From NCBI GenBank assembly GCA_022820725.1, contig JAJEFA010000001.1:182749-246748 (forward strand): a DNA stretch of 64,000 nt. Reading direction: 5' to 3'. Shown in pieces: positions 7,817 through 64,000 of this stretch. The DNA is from Candidatus Binatia bacterium (GTDB taxonomy: Bacteria; Desulfobacterota; Binatia; Bin18). A model generated the notes under the pieces. It searched no databases, was not told the DNA's origin, and worked only from the letters and a program-made list of their open reading frames with translations. Numbering within the stretch: position 1 is the first letter of the stretch; the number at the start of each line of letters is the position of its first letter. Both the position numbers and the translations under genes were made by a program.

Positions 7817-10438
7817 TTACGCCACCTCAGCCACCGGTGCGGTCGTGAAGGTGAGGTCGTGGTGGTCGTAGTCGACGATCACGTGGGCGTTCTCCGCCAC
7901 CTCGCCAGCGATGATTTTCCGGCCAAGATTGGTCTCTATCTCTTTCTGGAGGAGGCGTTTGAGGGGCCGCGCCCCATAGGTCGGGTCATAGCCGGTGTGG
8001 GCGAAGTATTCCTTAGCGCTTTCCGTCAGTTCAAGCGTGATGTGTCGCTCGGCCAGCCGCTCCCGCAAGTGCGCAAGCTGAATCTCGACGATCTGTTTGA
8101 GGTGGTCCCGGTTCAGGCTGTGGAATACCACAATCTCGTCGACCCGATTCAGAAATTCCGGCCGGAATTCGTTCCGCAGGGCATCCAGCACATCTCTCTT
8201 CATGCGCTCATACGCCTCGGCGTCATCACCGCCCCGATAGCCCAGGATCAACTGGCTGCCGACATTCGAGGTCATGATGATAACGGTGTTCTTAAAATCA
8301 ACCGTCCGGCCGTGCCCATCGGTTAACCGTCCGTCGTCCAGAATCTGGAGTAAGGCATTGAAGACATCGGGGTGGGCCTTTTCGATCTCGTCGAACAGGA
8401 TGACCGAATAGGGTTTCCGCCGGACCGCTTCGGTCAGTTGTCCGCCTTCGTCATAGCCGACATACCCCGGAGGCGCACCAATGAGACGCGCGACCGTATG
8501 CTTCTCCATATATTCCGACATATCGAGCCGGACCATATTCGTCTCATCGTCAAACAAAAACTCGGCCAGCGCACGGGCCAGTTCGGTTTTGCCCACCCCG
8601 GTCGGCCCCAGAAAGATGAACGACCCAATCGGCCGGTGCGGGTCCTTGAGTCCCGAGCGGGCCCGAATCACCGCGTCGGCCACCGCCTGGACGGCCTCTT
8701 CCTGACCGATCAGCCGGTGGTGCAACAACTCGCCGAGTTGCAACAATTTTTCCCGTTCGCCTTCGAGCAGCTTTGCGACGGGAATACCCGTCCAGCGCGA
8801 GATAATGGCGGCAATATCGTCCTCGTCAACCTCCTCCTTGAGGAGGCGACTCGGACCCTGTTCGCTCTGGAGCTTGGCTTCTCCATCCGCCAGGTCGCGC
8901 TCAAGCTGGGCCAGCTTGCCGTATTTCAGTTCGGCGACCCGGTTGAGATCGTAGTCGCGTTCGGCCTTTTCAATGGCGCGCCGGGTCTGTTCAATGTCCT
9001 CTTTGAGACTGCGGAGCTGACCGATGCTGTTCTTCTCCATCTCCCACCGGGCAGTCAGCGCCCCGGCCTCAGCCTGGCAATCCGCCAGCTCCTTTTCCAG
9101 CTTCTCCAGCCGGAGCCGCGAGGCCTGGTCGGTCTCCTTGCGCAGGGCCTCGCGCTCAATTTCAAGCTGCAAGACCCGCCTGGACACCTCGTCCAGTTCG
9201 GTCGGCATGGAGTCGATTTCGGTGCGGAGCCGGGCCGCGGCTTCGTCCATCAGATCAATAGCCTTGTCCGGCAAAAAGCGATCGCTGATGTAGCGGTGCG
9301 ACAAGACCGCCGCGGTCACCAGCGCCGCATCCTTGATGCGAACCCCGTGGTGGATTTCGTAGCGTTCGCGCAGCCCGCGCAGAATGGAAATCGTGTCTTC
9401 CACGGACGGCTGGTCAACCGTGACCGGCTGAAAGCGCCGTTCCAGCGCCCGGTCCTTTTCCACATATTGACGATACTCGTCCAGCGTCGTCGCCCCGATG
9501 CAGTGCAGCTCGCCACGGGCCAGCATCGGTTTCAGCAGATTGGACGCGTCCATGGCGCCCTCCGACGCTCCCGCGCCGACCACCGTATGCAACTCGTCTA
9601 TAAACAGCACCACCTCGCCCTCGGACTCCTGGATCTCTTTGAGCACGGCTTTGAGCCGCTCTTCGAACTCACCCCGAAATTTTGCACCGGCAACCAGCGC
9701 GCCCATATCCAGGACGATCACGCGGCGATTCTGCAAACTTTCCGGCACATCGCCGCTGACGATGCGCTGGGCCAGCCCTTCCACAATGGCGGTCTTGCCC
9801 ACACCTGGGTCACCGATCAGCACCGGATTATTCTTGGTGCGGCGAGAGAGCACCTGTACGATCCGACGGATTTCATCATCCCGGCCAATCACCGGGTCAA
9901 GCTTGCCCAGGCTCGCCGCCTGCGTCAGGTCCCGACCATAACGTTCCAGGGCCTGATAGGTGCCCTCCGGATTTTGACTGGTCACACGCTGGTGGCCGCG
10001 TACTTTCCGGAGCGCCGCAAGCAGACGCTCTCGGCTCAGGCCGTGGTCGCGCAGCAAACGGCCCGTCACGCCCTCGTCTTCCAGCATGGCCAGCAGCAGG
10101 TGCTCAACGCTGACGTAGTCGTCTTTCAGTTCCTTGGCTTCATCTTCAGCGCGGGTGAGCACCTGGGACAAGCGCTGAGTGACATAAACATGGTCCGGAC
10201 CACTGGCCGGGCCGGAAACCTGCGGAATGCGATCCAGCAACTTTTCAAGCTCAGCGGTCAGCGCGTCGAGGGACACTCCGGCCTGAATAATCAGCGCCGG
10301 GACGATTCCGTCGGGAGATTCCGTGAGTGCGGCCAATACATGTTCAATATCAACTCCCTGGTGATTCCGTCGGGTTGCCAGCGCCTGGGCCTGGCGTAGA
10401 GCTTCCTGCGATTTTTCCGTCAAGCGGTTGAGATCCAC
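7817..10438 (-). CDS. clpB: ATP-dependent chaperone/disaggregase ClpB
   Basis: Two AAA+ modules ([13 protein letters not shown]... and [12 protein letters not shown]...), a coiled-coil middle domain and a C-terminal D2-small domain. Canonical N-terminus (V)[17 protein letters not shown] at a GTG (10438) preceded by GGAGGAAGGAGG. The track ORF extends 36 codons further upstream to an ATG at 10546. Confidence 0.9.
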
Positions 10439-12267: not shown

Positions 12268-15200
12268 TCAATATTTCTTCTGCCAGAGAATATGGGCTTC
12301 GCTGGCACCGCCCGAACTGGAGGACGTATCGATCTGCCAGTTCGGACCGAGCTGATATTCCAGGGAGACTTTCCGCTCACCCTTCTTCGTCAGGTCATGA
12401 GCGACGGATACCTGTAACCCCTTGGGCAAAGAGAAACCAAAGCCGACCGTCCCGCCGGCGATATCCAGATTCGAGAGTTTGAGGCCGGCCCCAAGCCTCT
12501 CCAGCCCAAGCGCTTGAGAGACCGACTCGCCGATCTTGGTCGCGGCGTAACCGCTCGTGATCGCCAGCGCCTGTTTCTCAAGGTCAAGCTTTTCGCCTTG
12601 ATCCAGCGCGCTGGCCGGCTTCCCAAACAGGAGAACGGCCAGGATATCGGCATGCTCCAGTTCCGGCTGGCTGCGTAAGACGAGGCTGGGTTCGTCTGCG
12701 GTTCCCCGGACCACGGCTTCAACGACATGGTCGGGCGCCTGGTATTGCGCCACAATGTCCAGACTCGGATTGATTTTTCTCCCCCCGGTAAACTGGACTG
12801 TGCCCCCGTCCAGGGTGAAACGCCGCCCCTGGAAACCCGCCCAGCCTTGAACCACTTTGATATCCCCGACCAGGCGGGGCTCCGCCCCGCGTTCTTTCGT
12901 CACCGTGACCGCCCCAGTCAGATCAACTGCCGTGTTCGCGTGTTCGATCCGGGTATTGCGGTGGACTCGGACAGTCAGATCCATGGTCGCATTACGGGCG
13001 GCCCTGCCCTCGGCCCTTTGTTCTCTGACCGCGGCGTGCTCGGCCAGAGAGCGAGCGGTCTCACCCACCGGGATAACGAGAATGGTTTCGTCCCGATTGA
13101 CCGGCCTGCTATCGAGAAAGGCCAGGTCCGGGTGAAGGGTGGCCCGCAGAACTTCCACCGTACCGCTCAGATGTGGTGCGGTGAGGGCTCCGGATATGTT
13201 GACAGCCGCACCGACCTCGGCCTGGTACTGCCTGGTATGAATCGCCGGCCATTGATGAGCGGTCAGGGTCATATCTATGCCCTGTGGCGCGTAATTGGAT
13301 AAGCTGATGACCCCTTGCCCTGTCATCTTGCCTTTTCCGGAGACCGCAGAGATTTCCTCAATGCGCAGCGTCTCGGGCTGGGCGACCAGTACAAGAGTCG
13401 CATCGGAGATCGTCGTTCCGAGTGGAGCGACCGTCACCTGACCATTGCGGAGCGTGATTGTTCCTCGCGGGAACAGGTCCGTGAGCGGTCCGTGCAAGGC
13501 CATGTCAACATGCAGTTCCCCGGCAATATCGCTGGCTCCTTTGCCACTCAGAGCGTTCAGAAAGGCCAGGTTCAATCCGCTGGAGCGCGCGCGGGCGTCG
13601 AGGTCTCCCAGGATTCCGGTTGTGAGCCCGTTGTGCCAGTGCAGGGCAAGCGGCAGCGCCCCGGAGACCTGCAAGGCATGCTGCCCATCCTGCTCAAAGG
13701 TCAGGTCGAGCGTGGCCTGCCCGTCCCGATAGGTAAACGAAGACGACAGCCCTTTATATGGCTGTTCAGCGATGCGTAACGGATCGATAGCCAGGTTTCC
13801 CTCGATAATCGGGGTCTCGGCAGTCCCGGAGAGCCGGATATGCGTAGACAGCGCGCCGGCAACGGTCGGCATATCCGGTACGAGCGGGCGCAGCCCGGCT
13901 ACGGCCAACTCCTCGACCCATACCTGAAAATCCTGCGCGCCATGCGTTGAGACACGTCCCTCTATGGAAATACGTTGCTCCCCGTTCCTCAGTTGCAGGG
14001 CCTCAATCGCTATGGCCCCGGGCTGCTGTGTCACCGTAGCAGGTGCTTCCAATTCCCAGACGCCGTCGGGCAGTGCCAGTGCAAGCGCGTTCACGGACGC
14101 GCTCAACCGGTCGGGCCGCCGGACAATCTGCGTATCCAGATACTGCTTCCGAGACGCGCTATCCGTCGCGTGAACCGTCAACTGTCCCCCGAGAGCCTCT
14201 GTGTGCGTCAACTCCAGTTGGGCAGCAACAGATTGCAGTTCAACCCCGGCATGCAGTCCGGACAATTCAACCCCTATCCTCCCCGTCGGCCACAGTTCGC
14301 CTCCGGTCAGACGATACTCGATCATTCCTTGAGTGAGCGTCCCCCCTTGCAGCGCAACAGCGCGTGTCTGCCCGGTACCAGAGACGGCAAGTCTGGTCAG
14401 ATTGCCCTCAGCTTCACCCGCCAGTGTGAGCTGGCCTGTCCCCTTTTGGCCGGCCAGAGCCAGCCACGGGGCCAGGTCGGAGACGTTGAGCTGATACGAC
14501 AGTTTCCCCATCTCCGCTAACGTCGTCCCCAGTTCCCCCCGCATCGCCAGGCTGGCACTCCGGGCTTTGAGTTGAACATCAGCGATTTCCACCCTGCCCT
14601 CGGCCACCGAGGCATCAAGCCGTCCACTCCGTATCGATATGGGGCCAAGACGCGAAGGAGCAAGCGTAAACAAGGCCCGGGCATCCATGCCGGACAGGTC
14701 CATCCCTCTGCCCCGCACCGTACCGGACAGGTTGAGATCGCTCGTCATGACCGGGTGGGTACCGGCTTTTGCCTGCGTTCCGTTTTCTGCTCCCGCACCC
14801 GGAACCATTTTTTGCAAGTCAAGGTGGTCAACCGCAAGCGTGAACGTGTACGCAAGCTCGTCCGCAAGCCGGATTTCGGCCTTCCAATCTGCCCGACCCG
14901 AGCTCGCGGCAATCGTCCCTGCGACCTCGCCGACCTGCTGCGTGACGCTACCGGCCAGCCCCACCTCGCCGACCCGCCACTCCCCAATACGAAAGTCCCG
15001 ACCTTGAGCCACGGCATTGCCGCTCAGGCCGGCCAGATCGGCCCCCTGCCCCGCCAATTCCAGGCTCCCCTCAAAGATACCGCCCAGGGCGGCGCTGCCG
15101 CGCAGCTTTGTGAGGTCAAAGCGAGAGAAAGCCACCGTGCCGGTGTATCTGGGCTCGCTCTGACTCAGGTCGGTCCACACCTGCCCCGTGAGTTCCGCGT

Positions 15201-18000: not shown

Positions 18001-19314
18001 TCAAGGCCGTTCATACTCCAAGGGATCGTCGGTGGCCAGAGAGCGGAGCGTGATGCCGTCAAGGGCCTGCTCAACCGCCCGATTCCGCCGGTCGAGCAGA
18101 GTCGAGATGACATCTCCGCCATCCATTACGGCAGGCTCGCCCCCAGGCGTACGCAGGATATCCAGCACGCTCGCGACCGCAATCTGCTCGGGCGGACGGC
18201 CAGGGACTATACCTTCCGGCTCAACGGTCTGCAAGAGCACGCCTTTTGCCAGCAGTGTTTCAATCAGCGGCTCCAGCGCAGAGAGCTGAACGCGGATATT
18301 TTTGGCAAGAGCGGCAACCGACCACGGCGTTTGTTCGGCAAGATAGCGCCGCGTAATGGCGACCAGGGCAGTCAGCGCGAGCCGTTCCTGCGACAGCGGG
18401 GTTTTGCCATCCAGTTCGGCTCGATAGGAGTTCGGATGTTGATGAAAACAGGCGACTTCGGCACCCATCAAAATAATCAGCCAACTGGCGTACACCCAGA
18501 TAAAAAAGAAAACCAGGATGGCAAAACTCGAATAGATGGCCGCATAGCGTGCGGAACCGGCAATAAAGGCGGCAAAGCCGACCCCGGCCAACTGCCATAA
18601 AACGGCCGCGACCACCCCGCCTAATAAGGCGGAGCCAAAGCGTACGGCAGTATTGGGAACAAAGACGTACAAAAACGTGAAGGCAATACACAAAAAGGCG
18701 AACGGCATCAGTTGCGTCGCCACAATAATGAGCGGACCAAGCAACTCGTTCGCAATCATATACTGCACCACGGTGTGACTCTGGGCCGAGGCGATAACGG
18801 TCAATGCCGTAAAGACCAGCACCGGACCGACCAGGACCACACTCAGATAGTCACTGCATTTCTTGCCCCAGGTACGAGAGTGCCGCACTTGCCAGATATA
18901 GTTGAACGAGTCTTCAATTTTGCTGATCAGCGAGACCACGGTATAGAACAGGGTCGCCACCCCGACCGCGCCCAGCACCCCCACACGCAAGTTGCTGACA
19001 AACTCCAAGGCCCACCGGGTAATTTCAGTCCCCTGCTCGCCCAACGGCTCCAGGGCTTGAGCCAGAGACGGCTCAATGAGATTGTGCACCCCGAATGCCT
19101 TGAGCACGGCAAACATGACCGCCAAGAGCGGCACCAGGGACAGCAGGGTGACATAGGTGAGCCCCATGGCCCGCAGGCTGAGCGCGTCGTCCTGAACTTT
19201 TTTGCGGACCGCAGAAAAAAAGGAATAACCCCGTGGCAGCCACTGTGTTAGCGCTGCCCACAGGTGCTGGAGAGCGAAACTCTGTACCTTTTTGACGCGA
19301 TACTCCTGGTTCAT
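18001..19314 (-). CDS. YihY/BrkB-family inner membrane protein with a C-terminal soluble extension
   Basis: Multi-TM N-terminal region (LTYVTLLSLVPLLAVMFAVL...) characteristic of YihY/virulence factor BrkB, plus a C-terminal extension of about 140 aa. Confidence 0.7.
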   Translation of the reverse strand: MNQEYRVKKVQSFALQHLWAALTQWLPRGYSFFSAVRKKVQDDALSLRAMGLTYVTLLSLVPLLAVMFAVLKAFGVHNLIEPSLAQALEPLGEQGTEITRWALEFVSNLRVGVLGAVGVATLFYTVVSLISKIEDSFNYIWQVRHSRTWGKKCSDYLSVVLVGPVLVFTALTVIASAQSHTVVQYMIANELLGPLIIVATQLMPFAFLCIAFTFLYVFVPNTAVRFGSALLGGVVAAVLWQLAGVGFAAFIAGSARYAAIYSSFAILVFFFIWVYASWLIILMGAEVACFHQHPNSYRAELDGKTPLSQERLALTALVAITRRYLAEQTPWSVAALAKNIRVQLSALEPLIETLLAKGVLLQTVEPEGIVPGRPPEQIAVASVLDILRTPGGEPAVMDGGDVISTLLDRRNRAVEQALDGITLRSLATDDPLEYERP

Positions 19315-25309: not shown

Positions 25310-25380
25310 TCTCTCCTCCTTAAGGAGTGCGGGCTTCCAGCCCGCAAGCGGCCAAGATGGCCGCTCTCCCAGGCGGGGAG
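25310..25380. repeat. Copy of the three-hairpin repeat family (CTCCTTAAGGAG / GCGGGCTTCCAGCCCGC / GCGGCCAAGATGGCCGC / CTCCCAGG) in the kef-hydrolase intergenic region
   Basis: Same hairpin 1 as the copies at 63061-63200 and 63861-64000. Hairpin 2 carries compensatory GGGC/GCCC to GGCC/GGCC changes that preserve the stem. 3' CTCCCAGG motif conserved. Confidence 0.5.
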
Positions 25381-53746: not shown

Positions 53747-56267
53747 TTTTTCTACTCTGGCCGGCTACTTTGGCCGGAAATTCCTGAACCGGCTTGACCA
53801 GTTTCAAGCGGGTGCCCAGGCGGCCCCACCAGCTCTGCTGCCAGTGGCGTGTCTGCGCCTGCCAGTGTTCAGTCTGTTCTTCGTGCTGCCGGGCAATCTT
53901 CTCCCAGTTGTTGCGCTGTTCTTCCATCCACGCCCTGGCTTTCTCCAGCTCGCCGATCCACGCCTGCTGCTCCTGCACCATACGTTCTCGTTCCTCCGCC
54001 TGGGTCTGCCAGTTCGTCCGCTGCGCTTCCAACCACGTTCTGCCTGTTTCGAGCTCCTCTATCCAGCCCTTGAGTTCCCGAATGAAGGTATTCTGGGTCT
54101 CGACCACGTTGCGCCAACTGGCCTGCTGGCCTTCCAGCCAGACTTTCCCGCGCCGGAGTTCCGCGGTCCACTGCCGCAGCCTGACCAGCGCGTCGAACGC
54201 TTCTTCAAGGACCGGGCCGTCGGCGTGCGGTCCCCGCTCCCGGTACAACCGGAGGCCGCGGCGGGCGGCGGTGGTTATTTCCTCCACCCCGCGCTCGAAT
54301 TGGTAGGCGTGCGAGGCATTAGCGCCGTGCCAGCGATAGCGCACCAGGGGACGCGCCAGAAAGCCCACCCGATACCTCAGGCACAGCCGGAGCCACATGG
54401 CATAGTCACAGGCAAAGCCCAGGTCCCGGTCGAACCCGCCCTGTTCGATGAGCGCGCGGCGGCGGGCCAGGACGGTCGGCGCGCACACCCGGTTGCCGTT
54501 GAAGAGCAGGGTCCGAAAATACTCCGGCCCGTCCCAGACCGTGTCGTCGGTCGCGTCCTCAATCCAGTCGGCAAACGCGCTTGGCGCCGACTCCTCGACC
54601 AGCGTTTCCACCCCGGAATGGACGAAACCGACGGTTTCGTCCGCGCTCAACACCTGGACCTTGCACTCCAGATTTTCGGGCAGCATCACATCGTCCTGAT
54701 GAAAGAGACACACAAACGCTCCACCGGCGAGTTCGAGACAGCGGTTCCAATTGGCCGGGATACCCAGCCGCTCCGGGTTGCGGTGCAGCTGTATTCTCGG
54801 GTCGGAAAAGGATTGAACAATATCGAGCGTGGCGTCGGTTGAGCCGTCGTCAACAACCAGGAGTTCAAAATCCTGATAGGTCTGGTGCAGGATGCTGCGC
54901 AGCGCCGCTTCAATATACTTCGCCCCGTTATACGTGGGCAGACAGACGCTCACCGCGCGGGCCGATGTCGGTCGCGGCCTCTCCTCACCCGCCGGGAGAG
55001 TAGGGGCGACCGGCCGGTCGCCCCTACTTGCTTCCGTTGGTCTATCCCGCACGGCCTCATACACGGCCTCCATATCCTGCGCGTACGCCTGCGGGTCTCG
55101 GATGGGTGTCGAGGCTGGCGTGAGCTGTTGACGCAACCGGGTATCGGTCCGCAGCCGCTCCAGGCAGCGCCCCAGGTCGTCGGCGTTCTCGGGTTCAAAC
55201 AGCAGGCCGTTCACCCCGTCCCGAATGACTTCGGGCAGGGCGCCGCGCCGGGCGGCAATGACCGGCAGGCCGGCCTGAAGGGCCTCTCGCGTGACCAGCG
55301 AAAAGGTTTCCTCGCACACGCTGGGCACAACCAGCACGTCGTGCCGGGCCAGAATCGCACTCAATTCGTCGTGGGCATAGGTGCCGCAAAAACGAATGGG
55401 CAGGCCGGCCGCGTCCGCCTCCAGTCGGTCGGCATAGGCGCGCCGGTCCGCGGCCCGCTCACCGTACAGGGAGGCGGCAAAACTGCCGGCCGGCACACCG
55501 TGTACGGCCTGGATCAACAGATGCGGGCCTTTATGCGGCACCAGCGCACCGATATACAACACCCGCATGGGCTGCCGGTCGTCCCGGCGTCCATATGGGA
55601 TAGGCACGACACCGGGGGCCAGGACCTGGAGACGCGGTTCCACAAAAGGAAAAATCTCCTGCATCCTCTCGGCCAGAAATCGGGACGGAACAATGACCCG
55701 CTGTGGCATATGCAGGAGTTGTTCAAAATAGGCAAAGCGCCGGCGGGCCTCCTCCGCAGTCGTCTCCGCCTGGAGGCAGGCAATACAGCGCTCGCCCCGG
55801 TCCGGTCCCGGACACAGCCGGGTGTGGTTGTCTATCAGGTGGATGCGGGCGCAGGCAAAAAAGAAGTCGTGCAGGCTGAGCACGACCGGATAGCCGAGCC
55901 GGGCCGAGGTCCGGAGTACGCTCCCGGACAGATGGATGACGTGCTGAACGTGCACGACATCGGGACGCGAGTCGGTCAGTATCCGGTGGAACGCCTCGTC
56001 GAGAAACGGATGGTCATACTCCAGGCGAAAATGTGAGGCATGGCTGAGAGTGTTGACCACCCGCACGACGCGCACCCCTTTGTGTCCGCTGACAGCCGGC
56101 GCATCCTCCCGCACCGAGCATTCCTCGGCAGCGGGGTCGGTGGTCCGGGCAAAGACCGTCACCGCATGGCCTCTCTGGGCGAGCGCCTGAGCCAGGGTTG
56201 CGGTAACGAGTTCCGCCCCACCCCACTTCTCGGGCGGATAGCCGTGCACGACCTGGAGAATACGCAT
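53739..56267 (-). CDS. Trifunctional-architecture glycosyltransferase: GT4 domain - linker containing a REP palindrome - GT2 domain - C-terminal W-rich coiled-coil repeats
   Basis: GT4 domain: MRILQVVHGYPPEKWGGAEL...CGTYAHDELSAILARHDVLVVPSVCEETFSLVTREALQAGLPVIAARRGALPEV. GT2 domain: VSVCLPTYNGAKYIEAAL...LLVVDDGSTD. C-terminal region: about 35-aa repeats WLEGQQASW...WIEELETGR / WLEAQRTNW...WIGELEKAR / WMEEQRNNW.... 8-nt overlap with the downstream GT2-GT4 gene. Confidence 0.8.
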   Translation of the reverse strand: MRILQVVHGYPPEKWGGAELVTATLAQALAQRGHAVTVFARTTDPAAEECSVREDAPAVSGHKGVRVVRVVNTLSHASHFRLEYDHPFLDEAFHRILTDSRPDVVHVQHVIHLSGSVLRTSARLGYPVVLSLHDFFFACARIHLIDNHTRLCPGPDRGERCIACLQAETTAEEARRRFAYFEQLLHMPQRVIVPSRFLAERMQEIFPFVEPRLQVLAPGVVPIPYGRRDDRQPMRVLYIGALVPHKGPHLLIQAVHGVPAGSFAASLYGERAADRRAYADRLEADAAGLPIRFCGTYAHDELSAILARHDVLVVPSVCEETFSLVTREALQAGLPVIAARRGALPEVIRDGVNGLLFEPENADDLGRCLERLRTDTRLRQQLTPASTPIRDPQAYAQDMEAVYEAVRDRPTEASRGDRPVAPTLPAGEERPRPTSARAVSVCLPTYNGAKYIEAALRSILHQTYQDFELLVVDDGSTDATLDIVQSFSDPRIQLHRNPERLGIPANWNRCLELAGGAFVCLFHQDDVMLPENLECKVQVLSADETVGFVHSGVETLVEESAPSAFADWIEDATDDTVWDGPEYFRTLLFNGNRVCAPTVLARRRALIEQGGFDRDLGFACDYAMWLRLCLRYRVGFLARPLVRYRWHGANASHAYQFERGVEEITTAARRGLRLYRERGPHADGPVLEEAFDALVRLRQWTAELRRGKVWLEGQQASWRNVVETQNTFIRELKGWIEELETGRTWLEAQRTNWQTQAEERERMVQEQQAWIGELEKARAWMEEQRNNWEKIARQHEEQTEHWQAQTRHWQQSWWGRLGTRLKLVKPVQEFPAKVAGQSRKND
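55000..55027. repeat. REP-like 28-bp perfect palindrome GTAGGGGCGACCGGCCGGTCGCCCCTAC located in-frame inside the GT4-GT2 linker (encodes SRGDRPVAPT)
   Basis: Seen directly in the sequence; identical to the copy at 57317-57344 and nearly identical to 1399-1426. Confidence 0.6.
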
Positions 56268-56274
56268 AGGCCGT

Positions 56275-57264
56275 TTATTTCTGTTTTATGCTCTCCTGTA
56301 AAGAAATCCGCCGTACCAGGGAGGGCGCCAGGCTCTGCTTGCGTTCGCCGAGCCAGGTGCCCCATAGTGCCGCAAGATGCCAGGCCAGGGCCAGGGCCCC
56401 CCAGCGCAGCCCGACCCGCAGCCGTCCCCGGTGTGTGAGCCAGCGCCAGAACGACAGGTCCCGGCGGGCGGCGCGCCAGGCTGTTGACGGCGTACGGCCC
56501 AGGCACAGACTGGAGGCCGCATCCAGATCGCTCAGCGCGCGGGCATGATCGAAATGCCGCCGGAAATTGGGCCAGGGGCCATACCCGTGGGAATGGTACA
56601 CCAGCGAATCGGCCCGATAGGCGGTCTGATAGCCGGCCTCAAGCACCCGCCTGGCCCACAGCTGGTCCTCGGCGAATTCCACCTCGGGGAAAGGGTGTTG
56701 CTGCCATACGCTGCGGCGCAACACCGAACTGACGTTCGAGAAAAAAGAAAAAGGAGCCGGATTGTCGGCATAATCGGGGGCGGCGCTGCTGTTCAGGCAG
56801 GATTCCGCCCGGCCCGACAGCTCGTCTTCAACAATGCGCCGCCACTCCATGGGGTGACAGTGCGGGCGGGGGAGATGGCGGCTATACGCCCCGGCAATGG
56901 ACGAATCGGCCCGGAGGGGGGCCAGCAGCGCGTCCAGCCAGTCGGCATTGGCGGGAGTCGCGTCCTGGGTCAGAAACACCAGATAGTCGCCCCGCGCGTA
57001 GCTTGCGGCCAGATTGCGGGTTTTGCCGTGGCCGAACTCCTGGGGCGGGATCCGTATGACGCGCACCGTGTGGGCCGCAAGAATGGCCAGGGTGTGATCG
57101 CGCGAACCGGAATCCACGGCAATGATCTCGTCGAGTTGAAAGCGGCCCCGTTGTTGACCGATACGGTCCAGCACTTCGGCCAGATAGCGCGCGCCGTTTT
57201 TTGTGACCAGGAGAACGGATATACTTGGCAGATCGGTCATAGCGTCTGGGTAGGGGCGACGCAT
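56275..57264 (-). CDS. GT2 glycosyltransferase (rhamnosyl/galactosyl-transferase-like)
   Basis: ISVLLVTKNGARYLAEVL...IIAVDSGSRD...VFLTQDA motifs. Track start ATG (57264) is the centre (GCATGC) of a REP palindrome whose left arm (AGGGG) lies at Shine-Dalgarno distance. An alternative start is the MTDLPS Met at 57240. Confidence 0.75.
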   Translation of the reverse strand: MRRPYPDAMTDLPSISVLLVTKNGARYLAEVLDRIGQQRGRFQLDEIIAVDSGSRDHTLAILAAHTVRVIRIPPQEFGHGKTRNLAASYARGDYLVFLTQDATPANADWLDALLAPLRADSSIAGAYSRHLPRPHCHPMEWRRIVEDELSGRAESCLNSSAAPDYADNPAPFSFFSNVSSVLRRSVWQQHPFPEVEFAEDQLWARRVLEAGYQTAYRADSLVYHSHGYGPWPNFRRHFDHARALSDLDAASSLCLGRTPSTAWRAARRDLSFWRWLTHRGRLRVGLRWGALALAWHLAALWGTWLGERKQSLAPSLVRRISLQESIKQK

Positions 57265-57277
57265 GCGTCGCCCCTAC
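57250..57277. repeat. REP-like 28-bp perfect palindrome GTAGGGGCGACGCATGCGTCGCCCCTAC
   Basis: Seen directly in the sequence; overlaps the 5' end of the GT2 gene. Confidence 0.6.
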
Positions 57278-57316
57278 ATCCCCTCTCGGGCTGGGTGATG
57301 TTCATTGTGTCGTGAG

Positions 57317-57344
57317 GTAGGGGCGACCGGCCGGTCGCCCCTAC
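57317..57344. repeat. REP-like 28-bp perfect palindrome GTAGGGGCGACCGGCCGGTCGCCCCTAC
   Basis: Seen directly in the sequence; 40 nt from the previous copy, between the GT2 start and the methyltransferase stop. Confidence 0.6.
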
Positions 57345-58199: not shown

Positions 58200-58982
58200 T
58201 TAGAGATAATCGGCAAAAAATCCCCGGCAGCGTCCAAAGGCATACCGGCCAAACCAGAAGAGCCCGACCGCCCAGCAGACGCTGTACGCCAGCGCGCCGC
58301 CCAGGTTCAGACTGCCCGACAGGATAATCGAGCGATAGCCATCGGTAATCGCCACCATCGGGTTCAGGAGAAACAGCACACCGATGGATTCCGGGATGAG
58401 GCTGGCCGGATACAGAATCGGGGTCAGAAAAAACCACAGCGTAAACCCGGCGGTGGCGAGCTGTTCGACATCCCGAAAGAAGACATTGCCGCAGGCGAGC
58501 AGCATGCCCAGCCCGGTCGCCAGGAGCAGCGCCAGACCCAGGGGCAGGCACAGCAACAGCCCGACCCCGCCGATGAACGTGCCTTTCCACACCATCAGCC
58601 CGAGCAGGAACAGCAGGAACCCGACGCCCTGCACCAGAAAGCTGGCCAGCACCACCGCCACGACCAGCAGTTCCGACGGAAATTGCAGCTTCTTCACCAC
58701 ATTGGCGTTGTTGGTGATGGCCGTCACCGAGCGCAGGCAGGCCTCCTGAAACGCCAGCCACGGCCACAGGCCACAGAACACAAACTCGGCAAAGCCGTGC
58801 CCGCCCTCAATCTCGCCCACCCGGTAAATCGCCGAGAACACCATGGTGTATAGCCCTAACAGGATGGCCGGCTGGATCAAGGACCACAGGCCGCCCAGAC
58901 TCGTACCGGCAAAACGCGCGCCGATCTCACGCCGGACCATGGTCACCAGGAGATAGCGATGGGTCGTCAGGGTGGTAAACAT
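58200..58982 (-). CDS. wzm: ABC-2 type polysaccharide export permease (Wzm/KpsM-like)
   Basis: 260 aa, 6 TM helices, N-terminal ...YLLVTMVRREIGARFAGTSLGGLWSLIQP... typical of ABC-2 permeases. Confidence 0.75.
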   Translation of the reverse strand: MFTTLTTHRYLLVTMVRREIGARFAGTSLGGLWSLIQPAILLGLYTMVFSAIYRVGEIEGGHGFAEFVFCGLWPWLAFQEACLRSVTAITNNANVVKKLQFPSELLVVAVVLASFLVQGVGFLLFLLGLMVWKGTFIGGVGLLLCLPLGLALLLATGLGMLLACGNVFFRDVEQLATAGFTLWFFLTPILYPASLIPESIGVLFLLNPMVAITDGYRSIILSGSLNLGGALAYSVCWAVGLFWFGRYAFGRCRGFFADYL

Positions 58983-59083: not shown

Positions 59084-60763
59084 CTAACGGGACACCAGGA
59101 AATCGCCGATGACGAGATGATCCATGCCCGTCTGCCGGAACATGGCAATGGCGTCATGCGGCGTGTTCACGATCGGGTCCCCCTTCAGATTGAACGACGT
59201 GTTGAGCAGCCCGTGAATCCCCGTCAGTTTGCCGAATTCGGTAATCAGCGCGTGGTAACGCGGGTTGGCCTCGGGGGTCACGACCTGCGCGCGGGCCGTG
59301 GCATCGACGTGCATGGCGGCGCTCAGGTCGCGCCGGCCGGCCGGGGTCGTCGGCAGCGCCATGGTCATATAGGGGGCCGACATGGACGTGGGGAAATAGC
59401 GCCCGCGCTGCTCCACCACCACCGAGGGTCCGAAGGGCCGCCAGTCCTCGCGGTGCTTGACCCGGTTGTTCACCCGATCCTTCATGGCCGTATCAGCGGG
59501 GTTGGCCAGGATGGAGCGGTTCCCCAGGGCGCGCGGTCCCATTTCCATGCGGCCCTGAAACCAGCCCAGGATATTGCCGTCGGCCAAAAGCTCGGCCCCG
59601 CGGGTGGTCACGTCCGAGCAGGCTTCATACGAGACACCCGTCTCCTCAAGGGCGGCTCTGATGTCCTGATTGCGCCATTCCGGGCCAAAATAAGCGTGGG
59701 GCAGGGGGACAGGGCGTTTGCCCGTTTCCCTGGCGTACAGCGCAAATGCCGCGCCGATGGCGCAACCCGGGTCGTTGGCCGCCGGCGGCACATAGAGGCG
59801 CTGCACCGCGGGATGGGCGGCCAGTTCGCCGTTCATCTTGGCGTTCAGGCCCACCCCGCCGGCCAGACAGAAGTCGTGCCAGCCGGTCTGCGCAAAGAGC
59901 AGATCAAACAGATGCGCCCCGATCCGCTCGGTCACCGCCTGGAGCGAGGCCGCAATATGCTCATCCGTGCCGTTGATCGGGTTTCTCCGATACGCCCGCG
60001 GCGGCCCGAAAAAACGACTCAGCCCCACCGGCACCTCGGACAACCAGCTCACGATTGCCTGCGACCAGTAATCGTACGGCCGGGTGACAAACCCCTCCGG
60101 CGTGGGGGTCACGATTTGATCGAACACCTCGGCAAAGCGGTCCTCGCCGTACGAGGCCAGGCCCATGACGCTGCCCTCGCCGTCCAGAAACGTAAACCCG
60201 AGAAAATTGGTCACCGCGGAGTAGAGCATGCCCAACGAGTGCGGCATGGGGATTTCGGCCAGGTGGGTGATCCGCGTGCCCTCGCCCTTTGCCAGTATCG
60301 CCGTGACCGCCTCTCCGCGCGCGTCCAGCGAGAGGATATTGGCTTTTTCAAATGGCGAGCACAGGAAGGCGGTCGCCAGATGGCAGTCGTGGTGGTCGAT
60401 CACTTCGAGCCGGACGCCGACAGTTTCGGCGAAGGTCTCGACATAGCTGCGGATCATTTGCAGGTTTCTGAAATAGCTGAGCAGGTCGTGCGGATGACGC
60501 TGGAAGTGCGAGAAAAACGGCTCGACCTTCCAGTCGTCGCACAGGCTGCGGGCACAGTCGTAATAAAACGCCAGAGCGTCGATGTCACGGAAATCGACCC
60601 CGGCCTTACGCAGGCAGAAGCGGATGGCCTGATGGGGGAATTTGCCGTGGGCGTGTTTTTGCCGGATCAGGCGTTCTTCCTCGGCATAGGCGACCAGCTC
60701 CCCGTCCCGGACCAGGGCCGCGGACGCATCGTGAAACAGCCCGGTCACACCCAGGACGATCAT
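59084..60763 (-). CDS. NodU/CmcH-family carbamoyltransferase
   Basis: MIVLGVTGLFHDASAALVRDGELVAYAEEERLIRQKHAHGKFP... N-terminal domain and the C-terminal YrdC-like half, about 560 aa. Confidence 0.85.
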   Translation of the reverse strand: MIVLGVTGLFHDASAALVRDGELVAYAEEERLIRQKHAHGKFPHQAIRFCLRKAGVDFRDIDALAFYYDCARSLCDDWKVEPFFSHFQRHPHDLLSYFRNLQMIRSYVETFAETVGVRLEVIDHHDCHLATAFLCSPFEKANILSLDARGEAVTAILAKGEGTRITHLAEIPMPHSLGMLYSAVTNFLGFTFLDGEGSVMGLASYGEDRFAEVFDQIVTPTPEGFVTRPYDYWSQAIVSWLSEVPVGLSRFFGPPRAYRRNPINGTDEHIAASLQAVTERIGAHLFDLLFAQTGWHDFCLAGGVGLNAKMNGELAAHPAVQRLYVPPAANDPGCAIGAAFALYARETGKRPVPLPHAYFGPEWRNQDIRAALEETGVSYEACSDVTTRGAELLADGNILGWFQGRMEMGPRALGNRSILANPADTAMKDRVNNRVKHREDWRPFGPSVVVEQRGRYFPTSMSAPYMTMALPTTPAGRRDLSAAMHVDATARAQVVTPEANPRYHALITEFGKLTGIHGLLNTSFNLKGDPIVNTPHDAIAMFRQTGMDHLVIGDFLVSR

Positions 60764-60969
60764 GCCTCCCCCTCGGCGGCAAGCTGGCTGCGGACCGCGT
60801 GGGCGATGGCGGCCGGATCGGTCAGGGCCGAGGATGAGACAATGCTCAGGAACAGCCGCGCGGCCTGGAACACCTGCGCCTCGGTCAGGGTCGTGGCGAA
60901 CTCGTCCTCAAGCGCGCGCAGGGCCGCCGCGCGCTGCGTCTCGTCCAGGAAACGTCCGTTCTCCGGCAT
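60760..60969 (-). CDS. Small hypothetical protein (69 aa), translationally coupled (4-nt overlap) to the carbamoyltransferase
   Basis: ATG behind CAGGAGGAG; acidic/helical sequence; no recognisable homology. Confidence 0.4.
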   Translation of the reverse strand: MPENGRFLDETQRAAALRALEDEFATTLTEAQVFQAARLFLSIVSSSALTDPAAIAHAVRSQLAAEGEA

Positions 60970-60985
60970 GTGGTCTCTCCTCCTG

Positions 60986-61022
60986 CTTTCCCTTCTCCTG
61001 GGAGCGCGGGCATCTTGCCTGC
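60986..61022. repeat. Truncated copy of the three-hairpin/TIR element (…CTCCTGGGAGCGCGGGCATCTTGCCtGC…) between the hicB stop and the small ORF
   Basis: About 30-nt near-identity with the left end of the 61505-61582 copy. Confidence 0.4.
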
Positions 61023-61027
61023 TTCTC

Positions 61028-61273
61028 CTATTGATTCATCACGCCCAGCATCTTATTGGCGTAGTCTTTGCCGCACGTAATGGGAGGTAGCGGTTTGCCG
61101 TCGTTCTTGTACAGGGCAATCGTTTCGTCCACAATTTCGCATAATTCCGCAAAGACTGCTTTTTCGTCTTTCCCGTGACAGCCGCCATAGAACAGTCCCG
61201 GACAGCTCCCAACAAAGCACTGATCTTCGTCGGACCATTCAACAATCTTGACGTACCGGGCGCTCTCTTTCAT
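61028..61273 (-). CDS. hicB: HicB-family type II antitoxin
   Basis: ...YVKIVEWSDEDQCFVGSCPGLFYGGCHGKDEKAVFAELCEIVDETIALY matches the HicB N-domain pattern (Y.V..E...G.Y.A.VPDLPGC..-G-T.EEA..). 4-nt overlap with hicA. Confidence 0.6.
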   Translation of the reverse strand: MKESARYVKIVEWSDEDQCFVGSCPGLFYGGCHGKDEKAVFAELCEIVDETIALYKNDGKPLPPITCGKDYANKMLGVMNQ

Positions 61274-61485
61274 CGCTTGGACTCCTCAATCGCGGCCTTT
61301 ACAGCTTTCTCCTGATAGTGCTTTGCATCTGCCCCAAGTTTACCGGCGATAGTGACGGATTTAGTCACCCTGGGATGCACGAAATTTCTATGACTTCCTT
61401 TTCCGCCCCGATCCACAAACCCTGCTGCTTCGAGGTCTCTGATAAGGGCTCTGATTTTTCGAGGCATCCGTATTATAGCGGACAC
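61270..61485 (-). CDS. hicA: HicA-family type II toxin (mRNA interferase)
   Basis: KIRALIRDLEAAGFVDRGGKGSHRNFVHP... contains the HicA GSH...HP signature; 71 aa. Confidence 0.65.
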   Translation of the reverse strand: MSAIIRMPRKIRALIRDLEAAGFVDRGGKGSHRNFVHPRVTKSVTIAGKLGADAKHYQEKAVKAAIEESKR

Positions 61486-61504
61486 GCAGGGCGGCCCCTA
61501 TATG

Positions 61505-61582
61505 TTCCTTCTTCTCTCCTGGGAGCGCGGGCATCTTGCCCGCCTTGCCTTTGCGGGCTGGAAGCCCGCACTCCCAGGGGGG
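61505..61582. repeat. Inverted-orientation copy of the three-hairpin element with terminal inverted repeats CCTGGGAG ... CTCCCAGG (MITE-like), abutting the wzt stop codon
   Basis: CTCCTGGGAG-CGCGGGCATCTTGCCCGC-cttgccttt-GCGGGCTGGAAGCCCGC-aCTCCCAGGGGGG. This is the reverse complement of the hairpin 1 / hairpin 2 core of the copies at 63061 and 63861, with an 8-nt insert between the hairpins. Confidence 0.55.
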
Positions 61583-61583
61583 A

Positions 61584-62789
61584 TCACGTCCAGCGGTGCG
61601 GCAGGCGGCACACGCCCAGCTCGCGGCTCTCGCCCCGCACCGAAAAGTCCTTTTCCACGGTATCAAACATGCGCAGGCCGGACGGGTCAAGAACATGGGT
61701 CCGAAAGGTGTAGTTGCCGGGCAACAGGCTGAGGCTGACCTCATACCCGATCCGAAAGGTGTGCGTGTCCACGCGCTGGGGTTCGACCCGGTCCATGTCG
61801 CTGAAAATACCGTACACGCCGAACTTGTCGTTCCGCCGGACATGGCCGACCGCAAAGACGGGCGGCTGGCCGTCCGGCACCTCGGCGATCATTTCGATCC
61901 GGGCGGTCTCGCCCAGGTCAAACACGTCGGTTTCCCGGTTGTCGGTGTCCAGCAGGCGGACCTGGCGCAATCGGCTGGGCCGGGCCGCATCGGCCACGGG
62001 CTGCGCCTCCGCCTGCTGCTCTTCCCGGGCCTCCAGCTCACGCAGATAGTCCTCAAACGCCAGCGTCACCTCGGCCGCCCCTCCCCAGGCGCGAACCCGG
62101 CCGTGGTCGAGCCACAAGGCTTTCTGGCACAGCTTCTGGACGTGGTACATGCTGTGGGAGCAGAACAGGAGCGTTTTGCCCTCATCCAGAAACGCCTCCA
62201 TGCGGCGGATACACTTCTTCTGAAACGCCTCGTCGCCGACCGACAGGACCTCATCCGTAATCAGGATATCGGGCCGGATGCTGGTGGCCACGGCAAAACC
62301 CAGGCGCATATACATACCCGAGGAATAGGTTTTGACCGGCTGGTCGATAAAGTCGTCCAGTTCGGCAAAGGCGATAATCTCCGGCACCAGGGCCTCGGTT
62401 TCCGCGCCCTCCAGGCCCAGCATGGCCGCGGAAAAATAGATATTCTCCCGCCCGGTATATTCCGGGTGAAAGCCCGTGCCCAGCTCCAGCAGCGCCCCCA
62501 CCCGGCCGGCCACCTCAATCGTGCCGGACGAGGGCCGGGTCACGCCGGAGATGAGCTTGAGCAGGGTGGATTTGCCCGAGCCGTTGCGCCCGATAATGCC
62601 GCACGACTGGCCGGCTTCCAGGTGCAGGTTCACGTCCTGCAGGGCCCAGAAGTCCTGGTGATAGCGGCGGGACGAGACAAACAGTTCCTTGAGCCGGTCG
62701 AACGGCCTGGTGTACAGCTTATAGCATTTGCCCAGATGCTGCGTGCGGACAACCCAGTCGGACGAGGCAGAGCGAGACACAACCGACAT
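61584..62789 (-). CDS. wzt: Polysaccharide-export ABC transporter ATP-binding protein Wzt with C-terminal substrate-binding extension
   Basis: Walker A GIIGRNGSGKSTLLK, signature YSSGMYMRLGFA, Walker B ILITDEVLSVGD, plus an extension of about 150 aa (beta-rich) as in Wzt_C domains that recognise modified O-polysaccharide termini. Confidence 0.8.
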   Translation of the reverse strand: MSVVSRSASSDWVVRTQHLGKCYKLYTRPFDRLKELFVSSRRYHQDFWALQDVNLHLEAGQSCGIIGRNGSGKSTLLKLISGVTRPSSGTIEVAGRVGALLELGTGFHPEYTGRENIYFSAAMLGLEGAETEALVPEIIAFAELDDFIDQPVKTYSSGMYMRLGFAVATSIRPDILITDEVLSVGDEAFQKKCIRRMEAFLDEGKTLLFCSHSMYHVQKLCQKALWLDHGRVRAWGGAAEVTLAFEDYLRELEAREEQQAEAQPVADAARPSRLRQVRLLDTDNRETDVFDLGETARIEMIAEVPDGQPPVFAVGHVRRNDKFGVYGIFSDMDRVEPQRVDTHTFRIGYEVSLSLLPGNYTFRTHVLDPSGLRMFDTVEKDFSVRGESRELGVCRLPHRWT

Positions 62790-63059
62790 TTACAATAGTT
62801 TCACAATCGCCGCGACCGCCGTTACGATGCCCAGCCCCATCAACCAGAGATGCTTGTATAAAGCCTCAAAACGCTCCGCCATCCACGTTTCCAGGGCCGC
62901 GATTTCAGCCTTCACCTCAGCGATATCGGCCTTGGTCGCCACACTCTCGGTAAACGCCTCCCGGATCGTGTCCGTGATCGCCTCGGCCTGTTGCGCCTCA
63001 AAGCCCGCCGCGGTCAGCGCCTTGGCCGCGTGTAAGGTATCAAACGTTGCGCTCGCCAT
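62790..63059 (-). CDS. DUF1640-like small coiled-coil protein with C-terminal membrane anchor
   Basis: MASATFDTLHAAKALTAAGFEAQQAEAITDTIREAF...ATKADIAEVKAEIAALETWM...LWLMGLGIVTAVAAIVKLL; start codon directly abuts the repeat copy. Confidence 0.45.
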   Translation of the reverse strand: MASATFDTLHAAKALTAAGFEAQQAEAITDTIREAFTESVATKADIAEVKAEIAALETWMAERFEALYKHLWLMGLGIVTAVAAIVKLL

Positions 63060-63060
63060 A

Positions 63061-63200
63061 GGGCCCCCAGCCTACCAACTTGCCCGGCAAAACGCAAAGC
63101 TCCCGCCCTCCTGTTCCTGGAGGGAGGGGGCTCCGGGAGGGCGGGCTTCCAGCCCGCAGGCGGGCAAGATGCCCGCGCTCCCAGGGGGGAAAGAGGAAAT
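63061..63200. repeat. Full-length copy 1 of the three-hairpin element (140 bp)
   Basis: ...CCCTCCtgttcctGGAGGG...GCGGGCTTCCAGCCCGC-ag-GCGGGCAAGATGCCCGC-gCTCCCAGGGGGG-aaagaggaaat; 97% identical (4 mismatches in 140) to the copy at 63861-64000, exactly 800 bp away. Confidence 0.6.
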
Positions 63201-63207
63201 CTGCCTT

Positions 63208-63441
63208 TTAATCAAAGATGTCCGGGGGAAGCTGGAACACATGGATAATGTTCCTGAGCATCCGCACGGGAATTTCCGTCTTATTCCCGTGGTAGGGAAT
63301 TGTACTATGGATTTCCCTGCCATCAATGTCGGGATGATAAATCATGCGGTGGCTTCCCTTCCCGCGTGTCACATGAATGAAAAAACGGCGATCATACGCA
63401 CGGAGACGGCGAACAACGTCTGCATATTCCCGAGACCGCAT
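63208..63441 (-). CDS. hicA: HicA-family type II toxin (divergent)
   Basis: ...FFIHVTRGKGSHRMIYHPDIDGREIHSTIPYHGNKTEIPVRMLRNII... contains the GSH....HP core and a C-terminal region resembling the dsRBD-like HicA fold. Confidence 0.5.
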   Translation of the reverse strand: MRSREYADVVRRLRAYDRRFFIHVTRGKGSHRMIYHPDIDGREIHSTIPYHGNKTEIPVRMLRNIIHVFQLPPDIFD

Positions 63442-63453
63442 GGCGGGTCCAGG

Positions 63454-63810
63454 CTAGGCGGTGACCGGCTCGAACGTTTCTGACCGTGGTTCCGGGAGGG
63501 GGATGTTCCCGACCCGCAGATGGGTCAACGACCCCTCCCGATGAGCGAGCTGCCCTTTCAACGCCTCTCGTTTGGCCTCCGCATACATCGTGAAATACTG
63601 GGGTTCCGCAGGGATGAAGATATTATCCAGGGTGTCATGCTGGACCGCGAATGTCACCTGCGTCACAATGGCGTCATACAAGTCCTCCAGGGCTTTCTCG
63701 AAGGTCTCTCCGTACCCCATCAGACTCATTTCCAGGGCAATCGCGCACCAGGAAGCATCGTCTTCCTGTATGCCAAGCACGTTGAGGTTCAGTTCCAGTT
63801 TCAGGTCCAT
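63454..63810 (-). CDS. hicB: HicB-like antitoxin (118 aa)
   Basis: Located immediately upstream of the HicA-like gene with a 12-nt spacer. N-terminal half ...WCAIALEMSLMGYGETFEKALEDLYDAIVTQV... is compatible with the HicB RNase-H-like antitoxin domain. Weaker assignment than for the 61028 cassette. Confidence 0.45.
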   Translation of the reverse strand: MDLKLELNLNVLGIQEDDASWCAIALEMSLMGYGETFEKALEDLYDAIVTQVTFAVQHDTLDNIFIPAEPQYFTMYAEAKREALKGQLAHREGSLTHLRVGNIPLPEPRSETFEPVTA

Positions 63811-63860
63811 TACGCATCCCCCTGCTCGCTCGTGATGCTATTCAGGACAGGTCGGCCATA

Positions 63861-64000
63861 GGGCCCCCAGCCTACCAACTTGCCGGGCAAAACGCAAAGC
63901 TCCCGCCCTCCTGTCCCTGGAGGGAGGGGGCTCCGGGAGGGCGGGCTTCCAGCCCGCAGGCGGCCAAGATGCCCGCGCTCCCAGGAGGGAAAGAGGAAAT
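63861..64000. repeat. Full-length copy 2 of the three-hairpin element, truncated by the window end
   Basis: Direct repeat of 63061-63200; with copy 1 it brackets the hicBA cassette. Confidence 0.6.

Follow-up and report, generated by a model that had tools for sequence, protein, structure and literature searches.

The end of a 64,000-nucleotide stretch of contig JAJEFA010000001.1 from a Candidatus Binatia bacterium (the whole stretch is called the window here) carries two small toxin–antitoxin (TA) pairs of the hicAB type, cassettes A and B, each lying between copies of a hairpin-forming repeat. They sit in and just upstream of an operon for an ABC-transporter-dependent polysaccharide. We regard this site as probably a hotspot for TA genes and for REPINs, inverted doublets of repetitive extragenic palindromic (REP) units, that has been reshaped by microhomology- and repeat-mediated recombination. 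The original prediction, made from the window alone, had correctly placed both hicA genes, their partners, the repeat copies, the 800-bp spacing of one repeat pair and the opposite orientations of the repeats at the two cassettes. All genes at the window end lie on the minus strand and are listed below in transcription order.

63454-63810, minus strand: hicB′, first gene in transcription order at the window end
63208-63441, minus strand: hicA′, second in transcription order
62790-63059, minus strand: CCDC90-like (DUF1640-type) small membrane coiled-coil gene, directly upstream of wzt
61584-62789, minus strand: wzt, ABC-transporter ATPase with a Wzt C-terminal domain (Pfam)
61270-61485 (longest open reading frame) or 61270-61467 (probable), minus strand: hicA, downstream of wzt
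61028-61273, minus strand: hicB, after hicA with a 4-nt overlap
60760-60969, minus strand: 69-residue open reading frame (orf69) between hicB and the carbamoyltransferase gene
59084-60763, minus strand: carbamoyltransferase (Pfam)
58200-58982, minus strand: wzm (Pfam), with methyltransferase and glycosyltransferase genes next to it

The exporter was identified as a Wzm/Wzt pair by the Pfam domains ABC2_membrane (57.9 bits) and ABC_tran (78.8 bits), with Wzt_C at 29.1 bits, slightly below its cutoff of 30.4, and its genes are adjoined by glycosyltransferase (GT2, GT4) and methyltransferase genes. Orthologues of wzt are 87-97% identical in complete Binatia genomes, and the CCDC90-like gene is kept in all relatives, in up to five tandem paralogues. 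We compared the window with eight related loci (L121-L126, L210 and L211), giving nine genomes in all; the gaps between wzt and orf69 were too rearranged in a MAFFT alignment, and pairwise BLAST blocks were used there. The window's own contig was also followed beyond the window end as its reverse complement, L001 (window coordinate = 73811 - L001 coordinate). Outward from position 64000 it holds the rest of the upstream repeat of cassette B, an internally deleted remnant of hicA′ and a gene for a 76-residue RelB-like antitoxin, and farther out more CCDC90-like paralogues, a conserved protein with an IS1595-type Zn-ribbon and many further repeat copies.

The toxin of each pair carries the HicA domain PF07927 (cutoff 27 bits), at 34.4 bits in cassette A (61270-61485) and 29.6 bits in cassette B (63208-63441). 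For hicA of cassette A the true start is probably the ATG at 61467 (MPRKIRALI...) rather than the GTG at 61485, because this is the exact point from which the DNA is homologous to 80 other hicAB loci; a TATAAT box precedes this ATG by 4 nt, and a promoter scan of the locus returned no convincing promoter. Its partner, an 81-residue HicB, has no sequence match in Pfam, NCBIfam or the PDB. Its 3241 homologues, 80-91% identical and spanning Planctomycetota, Proteobacteria, Acidobacteria and further phyla, are named HicB family antitoxin by NCBI and JGI, with 84-86% identity in named examples, and its AlphaFold model (pLDDT 72) has a β3-α core without a significant fold match. Kunitz-type PDB matches of this protein were dismissed as spurious products of its cysteine pattern. 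In cassette B the 118-residue HicB′, encoded upstream of hicA′, likewise has no sequence-family match; when its AlphaFold model (pLDDT 83.7) was compared with the PDB by Foldseek, the top 13 matches were all HicB antitoxins (TM 0.43-0.64, E about 5e-3), with a probability of about 1 for the first nine that falls to 0.5 at rank 13. In an unrelated 3.5-Mb genome (L207) a HicB′ homologue is followed by a HicA′ homologue that is 54% identical.

The assignment of two hicAB-type pairs in the original prediction was borne out, by PF07927 in both toxins, by name for the partner in cassette A and by fold for that in cassette B; judged in this way from sequence and modelled fold, both are ordinary type II TA modules, with predicted toxicity and neutralization. 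Like the known HicAB systems of E. coli, Yersinia pestis (HicA3B3) and Burkholderia pseudomallei (PDB 6HPB, 4P78 and 6G26), they combine a HicA-domain toxin of about 65-77 residues with an adjacent small partner modelled with a β3-α core, matched to HicB by fold in cassette B, and cassette A shares their hicA-hicB order and 4-nt overlap. Cassette B differs in that its antitoxin gene comes first, and neither partner in the window matched a ribbon-helix-helix or helix-turn-helix family. The 81-residue HicB is too short for the full-length HicB architecture of about 135-150 residues and is not recognized by current Pfam and NCBIfam models, and HicB′ has only one extra helix and strand after the core. 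A weak DNA match to a third hicA at window position 16545 lies within a BamA-like gene and was rejected as chance.

Beyond Binatia, the module at 61028-61467 recurs at 73-91% protein identity in hundreds of contigs from many phyla. In 80 unrelated metagenome contigs the DNA homology to cassette A runs from the hicA ATG to about 15 nt before the hicB stop codon, and conservation limited in this way to the coding DNA of hicA and hicB indicates that the bare pair is transferred horizontally very often. The REP unit was present in 0 of these 80 other hicAB loci (266 kb).

The repeat was identified from its structure and its genomic company. At its core two 23-nt units, GGGAG[C/T]GCGGGC[ATCTT/TTCCA]GCCCGC, are paired in inverted orientation, with pyrimidine- or purine-rich tails. 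Each unit is a perfect palindrome, and units occur singly, as doublets and in tandem arrays. The positions of the copies and of two related features are as follows.

61507-61582, minus strand: REPIN after wzt, units GGGAGTGCGGGCTTCCAGCCCGC and GGGAGCGCGGGCATCTTGCCCGC with a purine-rich tail, 1 nt past the wzt stop codon
61000-61022, minus strand: single REP unit, a direct repeat of the unit at 61521-61543, with an extended match over 60987-61029
63135-63200, plus strand: REPIN downstream of hicA′, units 63135-63157 and 63160-63182, with a pyrimidine-rich tail
63055-63134, plus strand: a further hairpin (hairpin 3), the leader and the ATGGC of the CCDC90-like gene, native sequence outside the repeat element
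63855-64000 and on to about 64044, plus strand: upstream copy of the tandem-duplicated block, with ATGGC, CCDC90 leader, hairpin 3, REPIN and hicA′ 3′ end
25324-25378, plus strand: REPIN in an unrelated gap flanked by genes for a cation/proton antiporter and a hydrolase, with no TA genes near
61583-61594, minus strand: wzt 3′ end GCTGGACGTGAT, repeated at 61038-61049 inside the hicB 3′ end, a presumed microhomology junction

The window holds 11-13 matches of the core hairpin motif, where 0.7 are expected; the doublet can fold in two ways, as two small hairpins or as one long hairpin; in the latter form the copy after wzt reaches -52 to -57 kcal/mol (z about -7). Across 11 Binatia loci we found 132 REP units, with compensatory stem variants (GCGGGC/GCCCGC, GCGGCC/GGCCGC and GCAGGC/GCCTGC). 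Rfam gave no match in the whole window at its gathering threshold. The REPINs have no T-tract and a terminator scan returned fewer matches than shuffled sequences; the single terminator-like match lies in the copy that follows wzt and points against the genes. In L123 a 205-residue gene with clusters of REP units on both sides encodes a REP-associated tyrosine transposase (RAYT; NF047646, 96.4 bits, cutoff 80), whose only PDB match is E. coli TnpA-REP (4ER8), and RAYT homologues also stand beside REP units in L049, L068 and L098, from one Binatia and two Acidobacteriota genomes. Given the doublet structure and a RAYT flanked by identical units, the element is a REPIN, an inverted pair of GGAG-tagged REP units and hence a known kind of non-autonomous repeat; REPINs are non-autonomous elements served by a RAYT transposase (PMC3116915, PMC5581495). 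It had been described as a three-hairpin element, which does not stand: hairpin 3 and the 60 nt that follow it are found only upstream of CCDC90-like genes, including sites free of REPINs (L122, L210), so hairpin 3 belongs to the native leader. The reported truncated copy at 60986-61022 is present, as one REP unit.

In most respects the element conforms to described REP and REPIN-RAYT systems (Nunvar 2010; Bertels & Rainey 2011, PMC3116915; 4ER8): its short palindromic unit has a conserved tag at the 5′ end, its doublets are inverted and form one long hairpin, its copies are intergenic and often just past stop codons, its stems vary in a compensatory way, its units form clusters and tandem arrays, and a sister genome has a single-tyrosine (HUH) transposase gene flanked by units. 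It differs in its host, Candidatus Binatia, in its GGAG-like tag, which is neither of the GTAG and CGTC classes described by Di Nocera et al. 2013 (PMC3733652), and in its distribution: REPIN-RAYT systems described so far are regarded as specific to a lineage and inherited vertically (PMC5581495), whereas the identical GGAG unit occurs in at least 14 phyla. Exact matches to GGGAG[CT]GCGGGC[AT]TC[CT][AT]GCCCGC were found in at least 119 loci (window 25329-25364, 61527-61569 and 63141-63176; L002-L120), from Acidobacteriota, Verrucomicrobiota, Planctomycetota, Chloroflexota, Cyanobacteria, Proteobacteria, Bacteroidota, Binatia, Latescibacterota, Armatimonadota and Nitrospinota among others, and RAYT homologues accompany the unit in Binatia and, at 53% identity, in Acidobacteriota. 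This sharing of an exact unit, with a tag outside the GTAG and CGTC classes, is the most unusual observation of the study. A literature search for the literal REP sequence returned nothing.

The REPIN after wzt begins 1 nt past the stop codon (window 61582-61584). A REP unit or doublet also lies in the gap after wzt in L121, L122, L123, L124 and L211, close behind the stop codon only in L123, L124 and L211; a REPIN at the position seen in L001 was not found in L122 or in L210. In E. coli, a REP located no more than about 15 nt from a stop codon is reported to make ribosomes stall and to reduce expression of the gene before it.

The repeats flanking the two cassettes differ in extent and origin. 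Those of cassette A (60994-61029 and 61515-61550) match over 36 nt at 89% identity, 521 bp apart, and those of cassette B (63055-63200 and 63855-64000) over 146 nt at 97% identity, 800 bp apart and inverted relative to those of cassette A. The copies of 140 bp reported at this spacing are real, as part of a longer tandem duplication that extends beyond the window end: on the full contig the repeat is 182 nt long with 97.8% identity, or 190 nt when aligned without gaps. Besides the REPIN it takes in the hicA′ 3′ end (~36 nt, or ~44 nt without gaps) and the start of the CCDC90-like gene, of which it includes the native leader and the initial five bases, ATGGC; the downstream copy is preceded by a 25-nt repeat of the 3′ end of the relB-like gene. 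Repeated local sequence together with this 25-nt repeat is what an 800-bp tandem duplication by way of ATGGC microhomology leaves behind. In the upstream copy, hicB′ and the middle of hicA′ have been lost; the hicA′ breakpoint, ATGCGGTC joined to CAGCT, is the same in L126, and the duplication junction, ccctATGGC followed by CGACCTGTCCTGAATAGCAT, is common to the window genome and L126. The duplication is therefore real and old, and neither an assembly artefact nor an element insertion.

At cassette A the traces are of another kind. The last ~20 nt of hicB (GCTGGGCGTGATGAATCAATAG) lie outside the widespread hicB gene and repeat the wzt 3′ end. In L125 the corresponding sequence reads GCTGGACGCGATGAA and continues into the ribosome-binding site of the next gene, with the wzt terminus directly before ATGAA. 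A hicB end that repeats the wzt terminus points to entry of hicAB at the wzt stop codon by microhomology-mediated recombination.

Comparison with the relatives places both cassettes in an orthologous, decaying series. In L125 the operon is clean, reading wzt-orf87-carbamoyltransferase-wzm with gaps of 15 and 49 bp and no TA gene or REP unit inside, so a carbamoyltransferase gene between wzt and wzm is the native state of this clade. The proposal that insertions had split wzm from wzt is thus no more than half right. Presence/absence polymorphism among relatives, which had been anticipated, exists: remnants of cassette A occupy the orthologous site in varying degrees of decay. In L124 and L211 hicB is kept (95% and 91% identical) and hicA is lost. 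L210 has the same state, with the hicB start fused to the wzt stop codon (gacgTGATGAAAGAAAGC) and no REP units in 6.3 kb. Of hicA, L122 retains 13 initial codons and the promoter region. In L123, which has no carbamoyltransferase, a 1.1-kb tandem array between wzt and wzm (L123:11260-12358) consists of five or six units of ~166-182 bp, each a REPIN, the first 73 nt of hicB and GACGTGATGAATCAATAG. L121 and L126 have no cassette A remnant at the site. For cassette B, L126 and L124 both retain hicB′ (94-96% identical) together with a hicA′ that has an internal deletion. Both toxins are intact only in the window genome among the nine.

Toxin-first decay is recurrent in this series, with hicA lost and hicB kept in three genomes, hicA′ deleted and hicB′ kept in two, and differing breakpoints. 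Other TA families fill other gaps of the operon: the 76-residue RelB-like protein belongs, as the antitoxin, to a relB/yafQ pair of which L122 has an intact copy, BrnTA occurs in L121, L124 and L126, HigBA in L122 and L124, and DUF433 in L121 and L126. In the carbamoyltransferase-wzm gap the window genome has an empty REPIN site, CCCCCCCTGG directly followed by AAGGAAGAAG, where L121 and L126 carry a 66-nt core. Tandem amplification of a repeat together with a fragment of a neighbouring gene, seen in the L123 array, recurs in L121, where the last 21 nt of wzt and a miniature inverted-repeat transposable element (MITE) are repeated three times, and in L211.

The REPIN is general to intergenic gaps rather than specific to TA genes. 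The first 57 kb of the window contain one REPIN, which no TA gene adjoins, and further REPINs away from TA genes lie on both sides of the RAYT gene and behind a secretin gene.

Observed directly are the anatomy of the locus, its orthology and decay series, the RAYT link and the lack of the element at other hicAB loci. They suggest the following course of events, of which the order and the role of recombination and slippage, rather than a dedicated enzyme, in making the junctions are inferred. The two hicAB pairs would have been acquired horizontally, without an element of their own. Cassette A may have entered the tight wzt-orf69 junction by illegitimate recombination at the ~12 nt of similarity between the 3′ ends of hicB and wzt, with REP units arriving at both of its junctions later. 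Cassette B would have replaced the yafQ toxin of an older relB/yafQ pair; its unit may then have been tandemly duplicated via the ATGGC microhomology and one copy largely deleted, a history that would account for the identical 140-190-nt blocks 800 bp apart. The direct repeats would now make the modules prone to deletion and amplification, every stage of which can be seen in the sister genomes. What is new here are the hicAB modules and the REPIN/RAYT system in Binatia, both of known kinds.

Several points weigh against this reading. Coverage is local rather than genome-wide (~74 kb of the window genome and 6-21 kb per relative), the series comprises a handful of genomes without a species tree, and the ~74 kb of the window genome contain no RAYT gene. 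REP units are somewhat enriched beside TA genes, in 20 of 32 TA-adjacent gaps (63%) against 21 of 54 other gaps (39%; odds ratio 2.6, p = 0.045), counts that come from seven orthologous and hence non-independent Binatia loci. Depending on the genome, the carbamoyltransferase-wzm gap holds BrnTA, HigBA or, in L124, both, and in the window it holds nothing. Finally, L124 shows a regular array in one orientation, wzt-REPIN-hicB-REPIN-...-REPIN-brnA-REPIN-higA-REP-wzm, a layout that leaves a cassette-like mechanism a small share of the probability.

These same features are what an account of REPIN-TA-REPIN units as true mobile or recombining cassettes draws on. Here a platform without an integron integrase would let a TA pair with one REPIN leave as a circle, through RAYT-mediated or homologous recombination of co-oriented flanking REPINs, and re-integrate at another REPIN, so that arrays are built. 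The array-like layout of L124, different TA families held between REP units in one and the same gap, direct repeats of one REP unit on both sides of each cassette, empty sites in the window genome and in L125 and the modest enrichment all fit it. We nonetheless consider it unlikely. No TA pair was found at two non-orthologous REPIN sites, and among the eight relatives the cassettes occupy orthologous sites only, which is not the pattern of cargo carried by a composite or IS200/IS605-like element. The repeats at cassette B and at HigBA of L122 hold unique local sequence (gene ends and leader), as duplication would produce, REPIN orientation differs between cassettes A and B, and the element is missing from all 80 other hicAB loci. 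Loss from an ancestral array explains the differential presence equally well. Repeats that occur with no TA gene nearby, and L210, where hicB stays at the site without any REP unit, are essentially the two findings that the original prediction had itself named as counting against a mobile cassette unit; with local duplication, orthologous decaying sites and the absence from other hicAB loci, they leave that proposal unsupported. A broader form of the idea, in which Binatia REPINs are the recombination sites of an integron-like platform that captures, arrays, amplifies and excises HicAB, BrnTA, HigBA and RelB/YafQ through RAYT-dependent or REPIN-REPIN recombination, has in our judgement a slim chance of being right. 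No paper was found that links REPINs or RAYTs with TA cassettes.

That the 800-bp repeat might be two strain variants of a metagenome stitched in tandem is suggested by its source, a metagenome scaffold, and by the resemblance of one copy to a deleted variant of the other. It is very improbable and was rejected: neither variant alone could yield the junction between the leader-ATGGC and the relB-like 3′ end, which is present in the independent assembly L126, and the identical protein has the same neighbours on all three contigs that carry it. Chromosomal integrons commonly hold TA cassettes, and the present cassettes resemble attC-flanked ones: small TA modules, with a similar structured repeat after each, form co-oriented arrays in an accessory region, and the repeats are alike, co-oriented per cassette and 520-800 bp apart. 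The reading as a chromosomal integron, or as an integrase-less attC cluster (CALIN), is effectively refuted even so, with a probability close to nil: as the original prediction had noted, there are no core sites at the element borders (no GTTRRRY and one RYYYAAC, inside hicB, in the span 60900-64000, over which 4.5 such sites are expected), no integrase is seen in 74 kb and no tyrosine recombinase among the Pfam-labelled genes of the window end and L001, the rest of the contig lying outside that scan, the cassettes appear to have their own promoters, and the repeats are 23-nt perfect palindromes of a genome-wide REP family, single, doubled or in tandem, that flank a RAYT gene, and the repeats flanking the cassettes here include duplicated local sequence. 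The hotspot of TA genes and REPINs remains our preferred reading.

The locus also resembles the bacterial interspersed mosaic elements (BIMEs) of E. coli and their repeat-mediated amplification and deletion: mosaics of GGAG-REPs, GTAG-REPs and the 145-nt MITE fill its gaps, and duplications and deletions end at or near repeats. Unlike in BIMEs, the tandem units include neighbour-gene fragments (the hicB 5′ end, wzt 3′ end and hicA′ 3′ end). The MITE, a third repeat family, ~145 nt long with terminal inverted repeats AACCCACCCCGCC...GGCGGGGTGGGTT, was found at L121:11206-11724, 13610-13755 and 14440-14720, L124:1-140 and L126:5030-5130. A second REP type, GTAGGGGCGACCGGCCGGTCGCCCCTAC, lies in the window at 54997-55027, 1396-1426, 57247-57277 and 57314-57344. 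The first of these copies is in frame in the inter-domain linker of an 842-residue GT4-GT2 fusion open reading frame (translated ...SRGDRPVAPT...), and in L121 a GGAG-type unit lies inside the same fusion gene (18623-18645). The in-linker repeat may have helped to fuse the GT4 and GT2 genes, or may simply be tolerated there.

Upstream of wzt, the expansion of CCDC90-like genes (window 62790-63059; L001:7554-7811 and 9177-9416; five paralogues at L125:4120-6000) is accompanied by a common, conserved, structured leader. Past the window end, L001:8168-8938 encodes a 256-residue protein with only the Zn-ribbon of an IS1595 transposase, at an equal position in L121, L122, L124 and L126; at so constant a position it looks fixed, and possibly domesticated, rather than an active insertion sequence.

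The locus shows in good resolution how accessory TA genes and REP elements colonize, and then erode, the gaps of an operon: the nine genomes form a series that starts with a clean operon and takes in intact cassettes, antitoxins left without their toxin, and amplified fragments. A repeat-gene-repeat arrangement can arise from REPIN colonization and microhomology-mediated duplication, with no cassette machinery needed, which calls for caution in genome scans; were REPINs after all a cassette platform, they would amount to an integron-like system based on REP elements. Of more consequence, perhaps, are two side results: REP units in frame in a glycosyltransferase linker, and a GGAG REP unit with an adjacent RAYT that is exact in at least 14 phyla, which is awkward for the view of REPIN-RAYT systems as bound to lineages.

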